NCBI RefSeq assembly: GCF_022539665.2
Contig: NC_081333.1
Span: 7,440,001 to 7,504,000 of the forward strand
Direction: 5' to 3'
Length of the DNA: 64,000 bases
Origin: Daphnia carinata
Lineage: Eukaryota
Shown: positions 3,001-53,702 of the stretch, piece by piece
Layout of the letters: each line of letters starts with the position of its first letter
How positions within the stretch are numbered: position 1 is the first letter of the stretch
Notes under the pieces: generated by a model
The model's input: only the letters and a program-made list of their open reading frames with translations
The model's database searches: none
Told to the model about the DNA's origin: nothing
Made by a program: the position numbers and the translations under genes

Positions 3001-4297
3001 GACCAGATGATAGTTTTACATCACGACTTACTAAACGAGTCTCCCCTTTATTGCACTCGTCATATCCGTAGTATACACACTAGTGTCTGTCAGTTCTTCT
3101 TTAGTGCGTCATCAACACCATACGAAATCCAGAAGCGTTGACCTCTATATCGAAAGAGATCGAACTCGCTGACCTCTCATATGTGGCTAATCTAATAAGA
3201 CCATGTTTAAACCACTAAAACGACTTGAAAAAAAAAGTGCTCGATGTGTGCAAACCGAGGTTGAGTCGTGTCGCTGTCCTTAAAAAAATATACATATATA
3301 AAGCTATTACTGCAACAACGACTTCCGATACTATGTCGGACGTGTTAGCGAGCAGTGAGGAAAAAAAACTTGACCAAGAGGGGTGTAAGCCGAGCTGTCA
3401 GAACATTTGTGAATGTGGCGGACAAACAATCCATCTTGACTCCAACACCCACCCACCCCGTTTTCTTCTCTACTTCGAGTGTGTCTATGTGTATGTTACA
3501 AGTCCAGTGATGGTCAATCGGCCACTCCTTGTGACGGAGAACTCGGATCGCATGTCAACTTCGCACCAACGACTGGCAACTGGAAGAGGTCGTACGTTGT
3601 TCTTTTGACCCACCCGTCTCATAACAGTTTTATTGTCGCACATTGATGTCCAGTTTTTTTTTTTTGTTTCTCTTGCTATTTTAGGGGACTCTCGTGTACA
3701 GTGTGTACAAGACAAATCCGCTGCTTCGCGCCCGCGCTAACACACATGCTTTTCTCCAAAATAAAGACACCCAACACTTGGTGTTCGCCAGTTTTTCCAA
3801 CAGTCACAATTCCGCTGGAAATAGGGTGACTCCCCGATTCTAAAGGTTGCTCTACTGGTTTGAAACAGAAGGAATTCTCAGACAAATGGGGGATTCCTGA
3901 TGGTGTAAGAGTAGCCGTCGGAGGGGGGAGACCGCACGCTGGGTTAGTGATGGTTTCCGTGAAATTCTCCCTTACACAAACGTTTGTCCACGGCACGGTG
4001 ATCCCCCGGCAGCAGCCGGTTTTGGCAGTTAAGAGGATGTTTCTCCAACTCGAAACTGGCGAAAGATTAGTTCTTCCTTTACGTCCTCATGTTCTTTCGC
4101 AGAAGATCACATACAACCGATCGCCAACGGGCGAGAACTCTTTTACACCAAGTTGAGATTTCTCTCTCAAAGCCTCTTCCCATTCATAAGATGAGCCGTG
4201 GGAGTAAAAAACGAAACTATTTAACTGTTAGGGATATTTTGGTATTGTGTACTTATATCGGGTATCACAGGATACAGCGTAATATGAGTATCAACAA

Positions 4298-41748: not shown

Positions 41749-42113
41749 GAAAAATCCAGATTGCGCGGAAATTTCTTAGGAAAATCGTGTTCCCGATTCC
41801 TAGCAGAAGACATAACTTAACGGCGTTTGCCATTGGTTGTTTAAGGTTTTCTTTTTCTGTTTGTTTCTTTGATTAAAAATAAGTTAATTTAATTTTTTTT
41901 TACCGCAAAAAAAGTGTAAAGGCTATAGCGTTACTACTTTTTCATTTTTTCACTTTTTCACAACGAATTTTTTGCCTAAAATTCGAGATATAACAATTTA
42001 AATACACGATTTACATTCTAAATTAAACGGGGAATATGTTTTTCGTTTTTCCGTGGACTTGAACTTTTTGAAATAACGTTAAAAAAATGTTTTTCAAAGT
42101 TGGAGCGCTGGTA

Positions 42114-45100
42114 CGCTATAGCTGGAGTGCCACAGTTAATTATTCTGAATATTTCAATAAATAATAATTTGATGATAAAACGAACTAGATTTTCGAAATC
42201 AGCATTAAATTTAGAGTATAATGTGTGATTTTGAACGATTTCCAAGAGATTTCGTATTTCGGTCGATTTTGACAAAAGTGGGAAGGCTATAGCCTTCCTA
42301 CTTTTTCATTTTTCACAGAATTCTAGATTTGGTTAAAAATACATGATTCCGATTCAAAATCAAATAAGAATCACGAAAATTGACTTTATTTTTACCTGAG
42401 ACCTATAGTTTTTAAATTATTGAAGTTCAAAGTGGTCGCGCTCAAAATCGCTATAGCGCTGGAGTGCCACTGTTAATTATTCTGAATATTTCAAAAAAAT
42501 TTAATTTGATGAGAAAACGAACTAGATTTTCAAAATCAGCATTAAATTTAGAGAATAATGTGTGATTTTGAACGATTTCCAAGAGATTTCGTATTTCGGT
42601 CGATTTTGACAAAAGTGGAAAGGCTATAGCCTTCCTACTTTTTCATTTTTCACAAAATTCTAGATTTGGTTAAAAATACATGATTCCGATTCAAAATCAA
42701 ATGAGAATCACGAAAATCGACTTTACTTTTACCTGAGACCTATAGTTTTTAACTTATCAAAGTTCAAAGTGGTTGCGCTCAAAATCGCTATAGCGCTGGA
42801 GTGCCACAGTTAATTATTCAGAATATTTCAAAAAAATGTAATTTGATGAGAAAACGAACTAGATTTTCAAAATCAGCATTAAATTTAGAGTATAATATGT
42901 GATTTTGAACGATTTCCAAGATTTCGTATTTCGGTCGATTTTGACAAAAGTGGGAAGGCTATAGCCTTCCTACTTTTTCATTTTTCACAGAATTCTAGAT
43001 TTGGTTAAAAATACATGATTCCGATTCAAACTCAAATAAGAATCACGAAAATTGACTTTATTTTTACCTGAGACCTATAGTTTTTAACTTATCAAAGTTC
43101 AAAGTGGTTGCGCTCAAAATCGCTATAGCGCTGGAGTGCCACAGTTAATTATTCAGAATATTTCAAAAAAATGTAATTTGATGAGAAAACGAACTAGATT
43201 TTCAAAATCAGCATTAAATTTAGAGTATAATGTGTGATTTTGAACGATTTCCAAGAGATTTCGTATTTCGGTCGATTTTGACAAAAGTGGGAAGGCTATA
43301 GCCTTCCTACTTTTTCATTTTTCACAAAATTCTAGATTTGGTTAAAAATACATGATTCCGATTCAAACTCAAATAAGAATCACGAAAATCGCCTTTATTT
43401 TTACCTGAGACCTATAGTTTTTAAATTATTGAAGTTCAAAGTGGTCGCGCTCAAAATCGCTTTAGCGCTGGAGTGCCACAGTTAATTATTCTGAGTATTT
43501 CAAAAAAATGTAATTTGATGAGAAAACGAACTAGATTTTCAAAATCAGCATTAAATTTAGAGTATAATGTGTGATTTTGAACGATTTCCGAGAGATTTCG
43601 TATTTCGGTCGATTTTGACAAAAGTGGGAAGGCTATAGCCTTCCTACTTTTTCATTTTTCACAAAATTCTAGATTTGGTTAAAAATACATGATTCCGATT
43701 CAAAATCAAATGAGAATCACGAAAGTTGACTTTATTTTTACCTGAGACCTATAGTTTTTAACTTATCAAAGTTCAAAGTGGTTGCGCTCAAAATCGCTAT
43801 AGCGCTGGAGTGCCACAGTTAATTATTCAGAATATTTCAAAAAAATGTAATTTGATGAGAAAACGAACTAGATTTTCAAAATCAGCATTAAATTTAGAGT
43901 ATAATATGTGATTTTGAACGATTTCCAAGAGATTTCGTATTTCGGTCGATTTTGACAAAAGTGGGAAGGCTATAGCCTTCCTACTTTTTCATTTTTCACA
44001 GAATTCTAGATTTGGTTAAAAATACATGATTCCGATTCAAACTCAAATAAGAATCACGAAAATTGACTTTATTTTTACCTGAGACCTATAGTTTTTAACT
44101 TATCAAAGTTCAAAGTGGTTGCGCTCAAAATCGCTATAGCGCTGGAGTGCCACAGTTAATTATTCAGAATATTTCAAAAAAATGTAATTTGATGAGAAAA
44201 CGAACTAGATTTTCAAAATCAGCATTAAATTTAGAGTATAATGTGTGATTTTGAACGATTTCCAAGAGATTTCGTATTTCGGTCGATTTTGACAAAAGTG
44301 GGAAGGCTATAGCCTTCCTACTTTTTCATTTTTCACAAAATTCTAGATTTGGTTAAAAATACATGATTCCGATTCAAACTCAAATAAGAATCACGAAAAT
44401 CGCCTTTATTTTTACCTGAGACCTATAGTTTTTAAATTATTGAAGTTCAAAGTGGTCGCGCTCAAAATCGCTTTAGCGCTGGAGTGCCACAGTTAATTAT
44501 TCTAAGTATTTCAAAAAAATGTAATTTGATGAGAAAACGAACTAGATTTTCAAAATCAGCATTAAATTTAGAGTATAATGTGTGATTTTGAACGATTTCC
44601 AAGAGATTTCGTATTTCGGTCGATTTTGACAAAAGTGGGAAGGCTATAGCCTTCCTACTTTTTCATTTTTCACAAAATTCTAGATTTGGTTAAAAATACA
44701 TGATTCCGATTCAAAATCAAATGAGAATCACGAAAATTGACTTTATTTTTACCTGAGACCTATAGTTTTTATCTTATCAAAGTTCAAAGTGGTTGCGCTC
44801 AAAATCGCTATAGCGCTGGAGTGCCACAGTTAATTATTCTGAATATTTCAAAAAAATATAATTTGATGAGAAAATGAACTAGATTTTCAAAATCAGCATT
44901 AAATTTAGAGTATAATGTGTGATTTTGAACGATTTCCGAGAGATTTCGTATTTCGGTCGATTTTGACAAAAGTGGGAAGGCTATAGCCTTCCTACTTTTT
45001 CATTTTTCACAAAATTCTAGATTTGGTTAAAAATACATGATTCCGATTCAAAATCAAATGAGAATCACGAAAGTTGACTTTATTTTTACCTGAGACCTAT

Positions 45101-45130
45101 AGTTTTTAACTTATCAAAGTTCAAAGTGGT
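42114..45130. repeat. Tandem array (satellite-like) of a 337-bp unit, ~9 near-identical copies, plus a degenerate part-copy at ~41915-42113
   Basis: The anchor GCTGGAGTGCC recurs at 42121, 42458, 42795, 43130, 43467, 43804, 44141, 44478 and 44815. Spacing is 337, with one 335 caused by a 2-bp deletion. Confidence 0.97.
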
Positions 45131-45565
45131 TCCGATTTTTTCCTAGGGCTTATAGTTTTTGAATAAATCGTAAAAGATAACAAACCCAAATTTGTGCGCT
45201 ACCAACATTTCGTTTCTTCATTTTAAAATAAGCAGTTGGTTTGACAAGAAAACAAACCACTTTATCGAAACCAGCGTATAATTTGGGGTTGTGCAGTGTG
45301 ATTTTTCTCGGATCAGTAAATGAAGTATCTTCAACTTTTATATTACCTGTAGAAGATTTTTCAGTTACTTCAGTTAAACCATAGCTGAGATAGAAAACTA
45401 ATAGATTGGCATGTTTATTTGGGGGTCCAAATTCTTTTATTTGTTCATAACAACATTTTAGTTTCGTATTCCATATCAGTATGCCGTGCACTTTTCCGCA
45501 GACATATACCCGCTTTTTAAATCGAAATGGAGATTGGTGGATTGCTTCACTTTTTGGGGGTATGT

Positions 45566-50700: not shown

Positions 50701-51373
50701 CAGTCAGGTAAGTTGCTCACATTATGTTTTGTAAATGTGTTTTTCGTTGGCACGCCTTTTTATAATCTCCTTTTGACTCAGCCTAGCGGTACCTACCCTA
50801 CCTTTGACGCGCGAAACCAGTTTCTAACATCTTTCCTAGACCACGTATGTTTCTCAAATTTCATTAAATTGCCTATTCAGTGCTAAATGTCAAATATTTT
50901 AACAGGCTATAAGAGACGTTGACTACGAAGTGCGTGATAGGCATTTTTTAGAAACCATACTCGATATGGAAATGTGGTGGAATATGACGTTTAACGAGCG
51001 TACTGTATTTTACAACGGTATATCAGTAATATCATTTTATTAGTAAAAAGTAAACCAACCTCGTCTTTGGTTTTTCTAGATGGAAAAAATTGTTTTGATT
51101 CGGTGTTGTTCTACGGCAATGAAACAACTTTGGTGATTTTCGAACTTGCTCTTTTCGCCTTGGTAGACATTTTTTGTCATTGCTACCTCACTGCCGCTGT
51201 TACCGTATTTATAGTCTATAAGGTAATCACGAATTGGGGTAAAATTTTATGCCCATTCGAATCGCTAAAAAGCAACTTTTCTTCAACTACAGGCACTTCA
51301 ATTTCTCCGGTATCGTTTTGGAAGGCAGAACTTAGCGAAGAAAACCATGATCGATCCACGTTTCTTATTTTAA
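47719..51373 (+). CDS. TMEM67: Meckelin (TMEM67/MKS3), ciliary transition-zone protein
   Basis: Signal peptide, Cys-rich ectodomain, LTNICVL, WQLTKRFF, VDIFLIDWESPK...VSVWRMFFVANEWNELQ, GFYVHGRSPHGFADIDM, FDSVLFYGNE; C-terminus QNLAKKTMIDPRFLF* with stop at 51371-51373. Confidence 0.95.
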
Positions 51374-51646
51374 TATTTATAAAATATTCTTCTTTTTTTT
51401 TCTTTTGCGCCTTGTTAGTTGGCTCTCGCTGGATTCTTTTCAAAACAAAAATTCTTGACCTGCCGTAAGCTTGCTTCAATAAAATCTCTTTACAATAAAA
51501 TGCACATGCATTTTCTTGAAATAAAAAAAAAGAACTCAATTATTTTACAATGTGTTTCTCAAGGGCGGAGAAACCCTAGCTTTTAATTTTGATTTCAGGA
51601 TGACTGTTAATACGGTTACTGTTAATAAGAAAACTATTAATACGAT

Positions 51647-51956
51647 AAAAGTTGAGTTGGCGGTTGCACCTTACCACCAACCCAACCAATTACTAATAAC
51701 TAACCTACTTATACTAGTACCTAACTTATGCATGAGTTTGTTTCCATTTTGCCATGTGATGTGCACTGTCCCACTACGTTTTTGCTGGACAACCCTGATT
51801 GCCGGCTAATCAGGGTTCCGTATTGGCGTAGGTAGTGGAACGTCACGATGACAGAAGAGGGAAATTCAACTCAAGGGAGACGTGACGGTCACGTGATCCA
51901 ACTATGAACCGCGAATTCACAACTAGATCACAAGACGGTTAGGTCACCACGTCTCC
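51647..51956 (-). ncRNA. Structured ~310-nt putative RNA polymerase III transcript; candidate telomerase RNA
   Basis: TATAAAA at -31 to -25 (51987-51981), G start at 51956, no T4 run for ~306 nt, then a 14-bp hairpin (51686-51651) and TTTT (51650-51647). Several helices contain G-U pairs that work only on the minus strand. ACCUAACC lies at 51944-51937. Confidence is for a ncRNA gene; the telomerase identity is less certain. Confidence 0.75.
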
Positions 51957-51980
51957 AATAGAGTGCGGCACACACAAGTC

Positions 51981-52025
51981 TTTTATACTTGTTTTTTTGC
52001 ACGAAAACTGCGTTTGTAAGAAGTT
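51981..52025 (-). promoter_or_regulatory. Type-3 (U6-like) promoter: TATA box plus candidate PSE position
   Basis: Minus strand reads ...CTTCTTACAAACGCAGTTTTCGTGCAAAAAAACAAGTATAAAAG-N23-GGAGAC. TATA spacing matches U6-type genes. The PSE sequence cannot be verified by eye. Confidence 0.55.
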
Positions 52026-52672
52026 GCGGGAGTCTGCTGCGACCTATTAAATTTAGTCTACCTATTGGGTTTAGCTGTTAGAACTTGCAAATCTTAAAGC
52101 GCTAGATCCGACAAGAAAGCAGTTAGACCGTTATAACGTTGATCAAGTCGCAAATAATATCTCGCATTAATACAACCTGTTTAACTGTCTTTATCATTGA
52201 ATTTCCCAATGCCCTGATGATTTTACTGATACAAAAAAAAATAAGATAAAGTTCGTTTTGTTTTAAAAAAGAGTGATTAATTGCCAAATATTTTCATGAA
52301 AATATTTAGCGCAAAAATGTTTAAATTGAGAATTAACTCTCTTTCGAAAAAAAAATTTCAGTAAACTTTTACTTTCACGCGAAGGGGTTTTAGTGAAGTG
52401 AAGGAAACGGTACACTTGGCATTAGAAAAAAATTCCAAAAAATAAAAAAGTCGTCATTTCTATGAGCTTTATGCGGGAGAATATTTGTAGTAAAAAGTGT
52501 TTTGATCGAAATCTGAAATCCCAAGTTTGTTCCAGCTGTCTGGACGAGGCAAAAAATGTTTTCCAACGTTGCCGTCTAACTTGGTACTTTCTGTCATTCT
52601 CAGTCTGCAATGGCGTGCATACAATCGTGTACGAATCGCGTCGGTTGGCCGAAAACTGAAATTAAAACAGAA

Positions 52673-53702
<1,030 letters not shown>

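Follow-up and report, generated by a model that had tools for sequence, protein, structure and literature searches.

What is encoded by a short stretch of DNA that lies between two protein-coding genes of Daphnia carinata and folds into a long, hairpin-rich RNA? The window, a 64,000-nt stretch of contig NC_081333.1, had been annotated from its letters as holding, at this position, a structured RNA gene of RNA polymerase III type with a template for the TTAGG telomere repeat, as a candidate for the telomerase RNA of this lineage. In our analysis the feature is real, and it is stranger than that description because of a repeat tail and extra copies. The locus is likely an RNA polymerase III gene of which a Daphnia species carries several copies. 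Our leading reading of its product, held at less than even odds, is a telomerase RNA or a descendant or paralogue of one. The features of the locus are listed below; nt numbers count along the RNA, B is a further copy of the element and L003 is a stretch from another cladoceran.

51079..51373, plus strand: last exons and stop codon of TMEM67 (meckelin), the tail-to-tail neighbour, recognised by Pfam PF09773, matches to Daphnia meckelin and a spliced contig
51504..51646, minus strand: downstream flank, loosely common to copy B, with 8 substitutions and several indels
51647..51687, minus strand: terminal hairpin of 14-15 bp and then TTTT, the predicted Pol III terminator; its 5′ arm overlaps the TTAGG-like array
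51647..51956, minus strand: predicted 310-nt RNA with G51956 as nt 1; its ends are predicted from the TATA spacing and the first TTTT
51668..51728, minus strand: nt 229-289, a decayed array of (TTAGG)n that runs along the template's own strand
51733..51873, minus strand: central stem, long and interrupted, formed by nt 84-224 and topped by a 10-bp apical helix
51876..51956, minus strand: 5′ domain, a single 81-nt hairpin in which nt 1-12/70-81 form helix P1 (first 9 pairs with a probability of at least 0.9, last 3 about 0.5)
51893..51931, minus strand: 16-bp hairpin with GAUC (nt 28-31) paired to GAUC (nt 59-62), without a flanking single-stranded U bulge
51937..51944, minus strand: candidate template ACCUAACC, nt 13-20, an 8-nt bulge with 1.6 copies of the complement of TTAGG
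51981..51987, minus strand: TATA box TATAAAA, beginning 31 nt before the predicted start; no substitution is listed within it for copy B
51988..52034, minus strand: upstream block in the zone expected for a PSE; similarity to copy B starts at 52034 (-78), and there are 4 substitutions in 51957-52034
52610..52728, plus strand: first exon of the head-to-head neighbour, with its ATG at 52610; the same gene is found in L003 at 69% DNA identity

The TATA box and the T-run terminator give the locus the layout of a type-3 Pol III gene, evidence that is partly circular since the start was itself placed by its spacing from the TATA box. As the initial annotation had it, TATAAAA is found 31 nt upstream of G51956 (51987-51981, minus strand) and the terminal hairpin lies directly 5′ of TTTT (51650-51647). 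The motif TATAAAA occurs 25 times in the 64-kb window. A stretch of ∼306 nt free of TTTT, which had been considered telling, is indeed present but is not unusual: of 645 gaps on the minus strand, 44 reach 306 nt or more. The G-U pairs had been taken to fix the orientation; they favour the minus strand (15 of 100 pairs, compared with 8 of 96 on the plus strand) but do not fix it, since the plus strand also folds with a z of -5.1 (-102.2 kcal/mol). The TATA box and the terminator are better evidence for the strand. Just behind the terminator, three imperfect direct repeats with 15-bp spacing occupy window positions 51603-51653, and a small 7-bp hairpin lies at 51554-51574 in the flank that copy B loosely shares.

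The 310-nt RNA has a predicted folding energy of -113.1 kcal/mol (z -5.5), which none of 100 shuffles equalled, and it folds better than any other of the window's 29 units bounded by a TATA-like motif and the first TTTT after it (z -4.7; runner-up -2.9). The folding energy of the DNA is likewise non-random (z -4.2). The arms of the P1 closing helix, the 16-bp hairpin and the long interrupted stem were all recovered on the minus strand where they had first been drawn. Within the 5′ domain, P1 (12 bp) is followed by the 8-nt bulge, a 3-bp helix and the 16-bp helix with its GAUC:GAUC pairing. Three features had been overlooked: the paired GAUC/GAUC, the closure of the template bulge by helices on both sides and the TTAGG-like array at 51728-51668. 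The motif CACGU occurs twice in the 5′ hairpin (within window 51952-51880; nt 62-66 and 73-77), and either copy could pair with nt 5-9; in the model, a register switch in the hairpin is possible. The comparison with Rfam that had been proposed earlier yielded no family that accounts for the RNA, RNase MRP/P, SRP, U6-type and 7SK included: there were no matches at gathering level over the 64 kb, and locally at the RNA only weak, unrelated ones (E 1.7-6.7). A tRNA identity was considered and none was found, and no snRNA was found in the 64-kb window.

The telomerase reading began with the candidate template. ACCTAACC is present at 51944-51937 on the minus strand and is the sole copy in the 64 kb on both strands. 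A template should be single-stranded and span the telomere repeat 1.5 times or more; the bulge ACCUAACC holds 1.6 copies and is predicted to be mostly unpaired (probability 0.59-1.0), beginning 12 nt from the predicted 5′ end. By chance, a (CCTAA)n 8-mer appeared somewhere in the RNA in 101 of 5000 dinucleotide shuffles, and 2.8 of every 1000 60-nt stretches are expected to hold such an 8-mer. The template is clamped, with helices adjoining it on both sides (the 3′ helix has a pairing probability of at least 0.97), and freeing nt 13-25 costs 6.3 kcal/mol. At the template boundary there is no P1.1 hairpin; instead, P1 adjoins the template through its three weakest pairs (probability ∼0.5). The repeat that such a template would specify, TTAGG, had been assumed for this lineage, and Daphnia data bear this out: in the available part of the report, TTAGG is the Daphnia telomere repeat and is made by telomerase, as shown for D. 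pulex/pulicaria rather than D. carinata (PMC4427308).

The 3′ tail carries a second telomere-like feature. Four 8-mers in the tail, at 51726, 51705, 51687 and 51675, are one mismatch away from GGUUAGGU, which is the exact complement of the bulge ACCUAACC; 0.013 such near-matches are expected per 62 nt, and four were seen in 5 of 5000 shuffles. Scored against (TTAGG)n, the array reaches 55, a value attained by none of 3654 background windows (maximum 43), by none of 2000 mononucleotide shuffles and by 3 of 5000 dinucleotide shuffles; the stretch was picked after inspection, and the background spans the whole window. TTAGG ranked first for the tail among 1272 repeat units of 2-7 nt, ahead of (TAGGTA)n, which scored 53, and of the second-best 5-mer, which scored 42. 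For the linker by itself (nt 225-269) the score was 36, which 1 of 5816 background windows reached. All four near-matches share the register of the bulge complement, while the other four registers yield one or two each, which argues that bulge and tail are linked, either through pairing or through a templated origin. Since template and tail are complementary to each other, they count as one telomere signal and not two. Nucleotides 13-19 are perfectly complementary to nt 232-238, nt 11-21 are able to pair with nt 269-279, and the template complements that the RNA itself carries would form duplexes of -8.8 to -14 kcal/mol; in the model, these internal complements could block the template. Nested folds in which bulge-tail pairing was forced cost 10 and 23 kcal/mol, so that this pairing is possible only as a kissing contact.

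The element is not confined to this locus. The expectation of a single-copy gene fails, because one sequencing run (X1) contained at least two further versions, copies B and C; there is no second copy within the 64-kb window, and neither a terminal inverted repeat nor a target duplication is evident around the element. Both copies are contigs of one run, which may hold more than one species. X1 was the one run listed as containing the sequence (share 0.33), with no RNA run among those listed, a blank that says nothing on expression; a second run, X2, gave no contigs. Among the pieces listed, X1 has a spliced contig of TMEM67 that agrees fully with the window, and none that reproduces the window's own copy exactly over the length of the RNA. 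Because of its spliced TMEM67 contigs, the run looks RNA-derived.

Copy B matches window positions 51504-52034, including the TATA region and the downstream flank, and the loosely shared flank points to duplication at the DNA level. Its changes are unevenly placed, with 1 in nt 1-190, 10 in nt 191-310 and 12 across 221 nt of flank; Fisher tests gave p 0.004, for core against flanks, and 0.0004. This pattern suggests that the template domain and the apical stem are the conserved part and that the 3′ end is free to vary; the loop of the 3′ hairpin and one of its pairs are altered. The near-identical core of copy B may be an assembly merge with the window's copy. Copy C aligns over nt 9-190, where 13 substitutions and 2 indels are listed. 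It diverges past about nt 207, and the tail may be absent from what it shares. Nucleotides 1-8 are missing, so P1 as drawn is not common to copy C. Upstream of window position 51948, copy C has TAAAG ∼29 nt before GGUGAC, echoing the spacing of TATA to GGAGAC (30 letters are visible), and judged from these letters its own start might be nt 9, in which case it would not be a truncated copy.

Both copies keep the template letter for letter, for copy C an outcome that chance gives half the time (p 0.50); the longer stretch of nt 9-41 is also unchanged in copy C (p 0.04). Pair-breaking changes are below random in each copy (3 of 13 in copy C, p 0.16; 3 of 11 in copy B, p 0.09), a deficit that is not significant alone and that was counted over pairs inside the aligned range, outside which lie the partners of nt 102 and 112 of copy C. 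By eye, the changes of copy C at nt 100, 102 and 112 find Watson-Crick partners in its loose 3′ end (GUCC/GGAC, GCGA/UCGC), complementary changes which suggest that the long stem has been kept in a different sequence. The second GAUC reads GAUA in copy C.

In other cladocerans we looked for the interval between the two flanking genes. The head-to-head neighbour is presumably NUDT21. When metagenome contigs were scanned for the TMEM67 exon, 5 stretches out of 111 were confirmed (L001-L005), of which L001 and L002 end too early and L004 and L005 are distant, so that only L003 spans the interval. L003 comes from another cladoceran whose TMEM67 has ∼69% DNA identity, and gene order is kept. A template conserved between the same two genes in a relative had been predicted, and this failed in L003, where neither blastn nor nhmmer found a homologue of the element in the orthologous interval, and where there is no CCTAACC and no TTAGG-like array (score 19). 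From stop to start the interval measures 920 nt in L003 compared with 1236 in the window, 316 nt shorter, which is about the length of the element. The element was thus either gained at the window's locus or lost in L003. About where the window has the RNA, L003 has a perfect 9-bp hairpin (within 3815-4035). This folded stretch was rejected as a counterpart, since it is not homologous, belongs to no Rfam family and, at 221 nt, does not fold significantly (z -1.3, -1.9).

A 20-base pattern centred on the template matched no metagenome contig, a weak result given that only 3 cladoceran-like TMEM67 contigs were found there, and pattern scans of viral contigs and prokaryote genomes also gave no matches. 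With a looser pattern 92 viral loci were retrieved, none of which resembles the RNA beyond the pattern itself, and none of 50 stretches in viral contigs was confirmed as TMEM67. Elsewhere in the window, a tandem array at 42114-45131 consists of nine 337-bp units that are ∼95% alike. Within each there is a 32-bp palindrome; a single 40-bp piece of the array stands apart at 41910-41949. A nearby SEH1 exon is 99% identical to a cluster of proteins from Daphnia magna, sinensis, carinata and galeata, with D. carinata the closest among 13.

How well does a telomerase RNA account for these data? In support, the organism is a Daphnia, the lineage has TTAGG telomeres, the gene is Pol III-like and a second repeat feature is present; against it stand the missing orthologous homologue, the copy number and the lack of a supported pseudoknot. 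The initial annotation had itself conceded that no convincing canonical pseudoknot could be drawn, and our H-type scan 3′ of the template, which was limited in loop length and made without a wide alignment, likewise gave only weak candidates and no P2/P3. The best of these, nt 70-76/110-116 with nt 101-106/136-141, was rejected, since it requires P1 to melt and is broken by changes in copy C. There is also no box H/ACA 3′ domain, as no ACA lies near the 3′ end (the last is at nt 216). Because no supported pseudoknot was found, we class the RNA as a candidate variant and not as a member of the telomerase RNA family.

Known telomerase RNAs offer partial likenesses, which we draw from the available parts of the cited papers. 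The insect telomerase RNAs described there all retain a pseudoknot and a boundary hairpin (PMC9841428, PMC11892584, PMC13023368), and those of Hymenoptera are Pol III transcripts from type-3 promoters (PMC9841428). With the hymenopteran RNAs the Daphnia RNA has in common a TATA-type layout, short length, a closing helix around the template domain, a stem-loop 3′ of it and a template matching the repeat; it differs in that no pseudoknot or P1.1 was found, and in having a template in a bulge and a G-strand array in its 3′ third. Lepidopteran and beetle telomerase RNAs share the TTAGG-type template and the existence of paralogues, of which Tribolium has two (PMC13023368), but they are described as Pol II transcripts with P1.1, P2, P2.1 and P3; compared with the moth RNA (135 nt), the Daphnia RNA is longer, has the TATA and T-run layout and lacks P2/P3 (PMC11892584, PMC13023368). 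The telomerase RNA core of trypanosomes is also reported to lack a pseudoknot, and in Trypanosoma brucei it combines an enclosing helix, a template, a hairpin 3′ of the template and a separate distal stem-loop, as here; the Daphnia RNA differs in lacking the template-adjacent helix II and in its far shorter linkers (PMC5175330). Such a likeness would be convergent. In rodent TERC-ITS loci, too, sense RNA-gene sequence has G-strand telomeric repeats behind it on one strand, but those loci hold 31-118 nt pieces of the 3′ domain that lack a promoter, whereas the Daphnia repeats are decayed and lie inside an apparently whole gene (PMC2246262).

The paired GAUC raises the main rival reading, which we consider rather unlikely, a divergent Daphnia 7SK in which the GAUC hairpin would bind HEXIM and hold P-TEFb and the 3′ hairpin with UUUU would bind LARP7. 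The GAUC pairing is itself rare, arising in 571 of 20000 pair-shuffles of the hairpin. 7SK begins with GGA, and the size, paired 5′ end and three-hairpin layout of the Daphnia RNA resemble the linear 7SK model as far as the available part of its description goes. On the account available to us, the key 7SK feature is a Pol III gene with a poly-T end and two GAUC motifs spaced for a hairpin, and this working definition describes the Daphnia RNA, in which GAUC at nt 28-31 pairs with nt 59-62 in a Pol III layout (PMC5389472). More broadly, the accessible portions of three papers place ∼300 nt, the Pol III layout, the 5′ GAUC/GAUC hairpin, the central stem, the 3′ hairpin and the U-run on the side of likeness, and the absence of the GAUC-side U bulge, of M1 and of an Rfam score, together with an unbulged and variable 3′ hairpin, on the side of difference (PMC5389472, PMC10083321, PMC8406779). 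One U bulge framing GAUC is said always to be present, arthropods included, in what is available of the source (PMC5389472); here U27 and G58 are paired with probability 1.0, and the sole free U, U24, is three pairs off. No helix of at least 4 bp begins at nt 1-5 to form M1, in which the 5′ end pairs with the linker ahead of the 3′ hairpin, the only ones being G-U-rich and starting from nt 6 onward, and no 7SK family matched in Rfam at E of up to 10. The 5′ and 3′ hairpins are described, again in partial sources, as the most conserved parts of 7SK and the 3′ hairpin as bulged, whereas here the 3′ hairpin is unbulged, its loop and one pair change in copy B, and the second GAUC is lost to GAUA in copy C. 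The fixed 5′ two-thirds and free 3′ third of copy B fit a telomerase RNA better than 7SK. The tail could also be read in 7SK terms, as a UAGG/UAGU-rich linker that binds hnRNP A/B, with ACCUAACC looking telomeric only as the complement of the linker. The available literature gives UAGG, UAGU and UAGGGA/U as hnRNP A1 motifs and reports that hnRNP A1 binds 7SK, and the tail suits them, with 5 UAG in nt 225-310 and a score for (TAGGTA)n of 53 against 55 for TTAGG. Were the RNA a 7SK, it would fill a smaller gap; we found no paper on a Daphnia 7SK in the open-access literature.

Bulge and tail could instead belong to a new Pol III RNA that is tied to telomere repeats and does not template them, with bulge and tail forming a conformational switch and the tail serving as a mimic or decoy for repeat-binding proteins or telomerase. 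The single register of the four tail 8-mers that match the bulge complement, the perfect pairing of nt 13-19 with 232-238 and the possible pairing of nt 11-21 with 269-279 fit this idea, as do the key marks of telomerase RNA and of 7SK that the RNA lacks, and the absence of an Rfam match. We think it unlikely, however, given the cost of the forced nested pairings (10 and 23 kcal/mol), the divergence of copy C after about nt 207, by which the tail may not be common, and the absence of any such class from the literature we met, in which no search was aimed at one. Less probable still, the locus may be a dispersed lineage-specific element (SINE-like or segmental) or a small-RNA gene copy in decay, and its array an old interstitial telomeric insertion without a present role. 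Three versions with differing ends (window, B and C) fit such an element, the site in L003 is empty and its interval shorter by about the element's length, and Daphnia pulex carries ten RNase P RNA-like copies according to the part of the report available (PMC4287351). Yet copy B includes the upstream TATA region, which retroposition would leave behind, and its core is far more conserved than its flanks; copy C has complementary stem changes, and neither terminal inverted repeats or a target duplication nor a second copy in the window was seen. A Helitron or MITE was rejected as no terminal structure was seen; the DNA fold (z -4.2), by contrast, does not speak against one. Finally, the window is rich in TATAAAA and in long runs free of TTTT, and the transcript ends are inferred rather than mapped, so a chance set of TATA, hairpins and TTTT in a head-to-head intergenic region that is not a transcribed gene has to be weighed; the z of -5.5, the rank as best of 29 units, the core conserved in other copies and the significant array make this highly improbable.

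If the RNA is a telomerase RNA, Pol III would begin transcription 31 nt past the TATA box, at G51956, and end it at the TTTT behind the 3′ hairpin, which together would probably form a La/LARP7-type binding site. P1 would close the 5′ domain and set the template boundary at nt 12, and TERT, on binding, would open the short helix that lies 3′ of the template. Alignment with ...GGT would then fall to C20-C19-A18 and the templating of TAGGT to A17-A13, which predicts products that pause after ...GGT. The central stem would act as a template-distal TERT-binding domain, and the 3′ TTAGG-like array would be either a relic of telomerase-added repeats or a latch that pairs with the template. In its most specific form this reading is a long shot: the first crustacean telomerase RNA, transcribed by Pol III, free of a pseudoknot, multi-copy and with a decayed telomere array as an internal template latch.

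We found no crustacean telomerase RNA in the open-access literature. In the parts available, searches for arthropod telomerase RNAs are reported to have failed in 2020 (PMC8480181), and a 2025 review calls for work on other arthropod lineages (PMC12133305). An RNA that carries both the complement of a telomere repeat and four near-copies of that repeat has no counterpart in the literature we examined. If the telomerase reading is true, the switch to Pol III would be independent of that in Hymenoptera. Daphnia is an ageing model in which, in the available part of the report, telomerase activity has been assayed (PMC4427308), and the locus offers it one concrete candidate with a sharp prediction: a TTAGG ladder that pauses after GGT.
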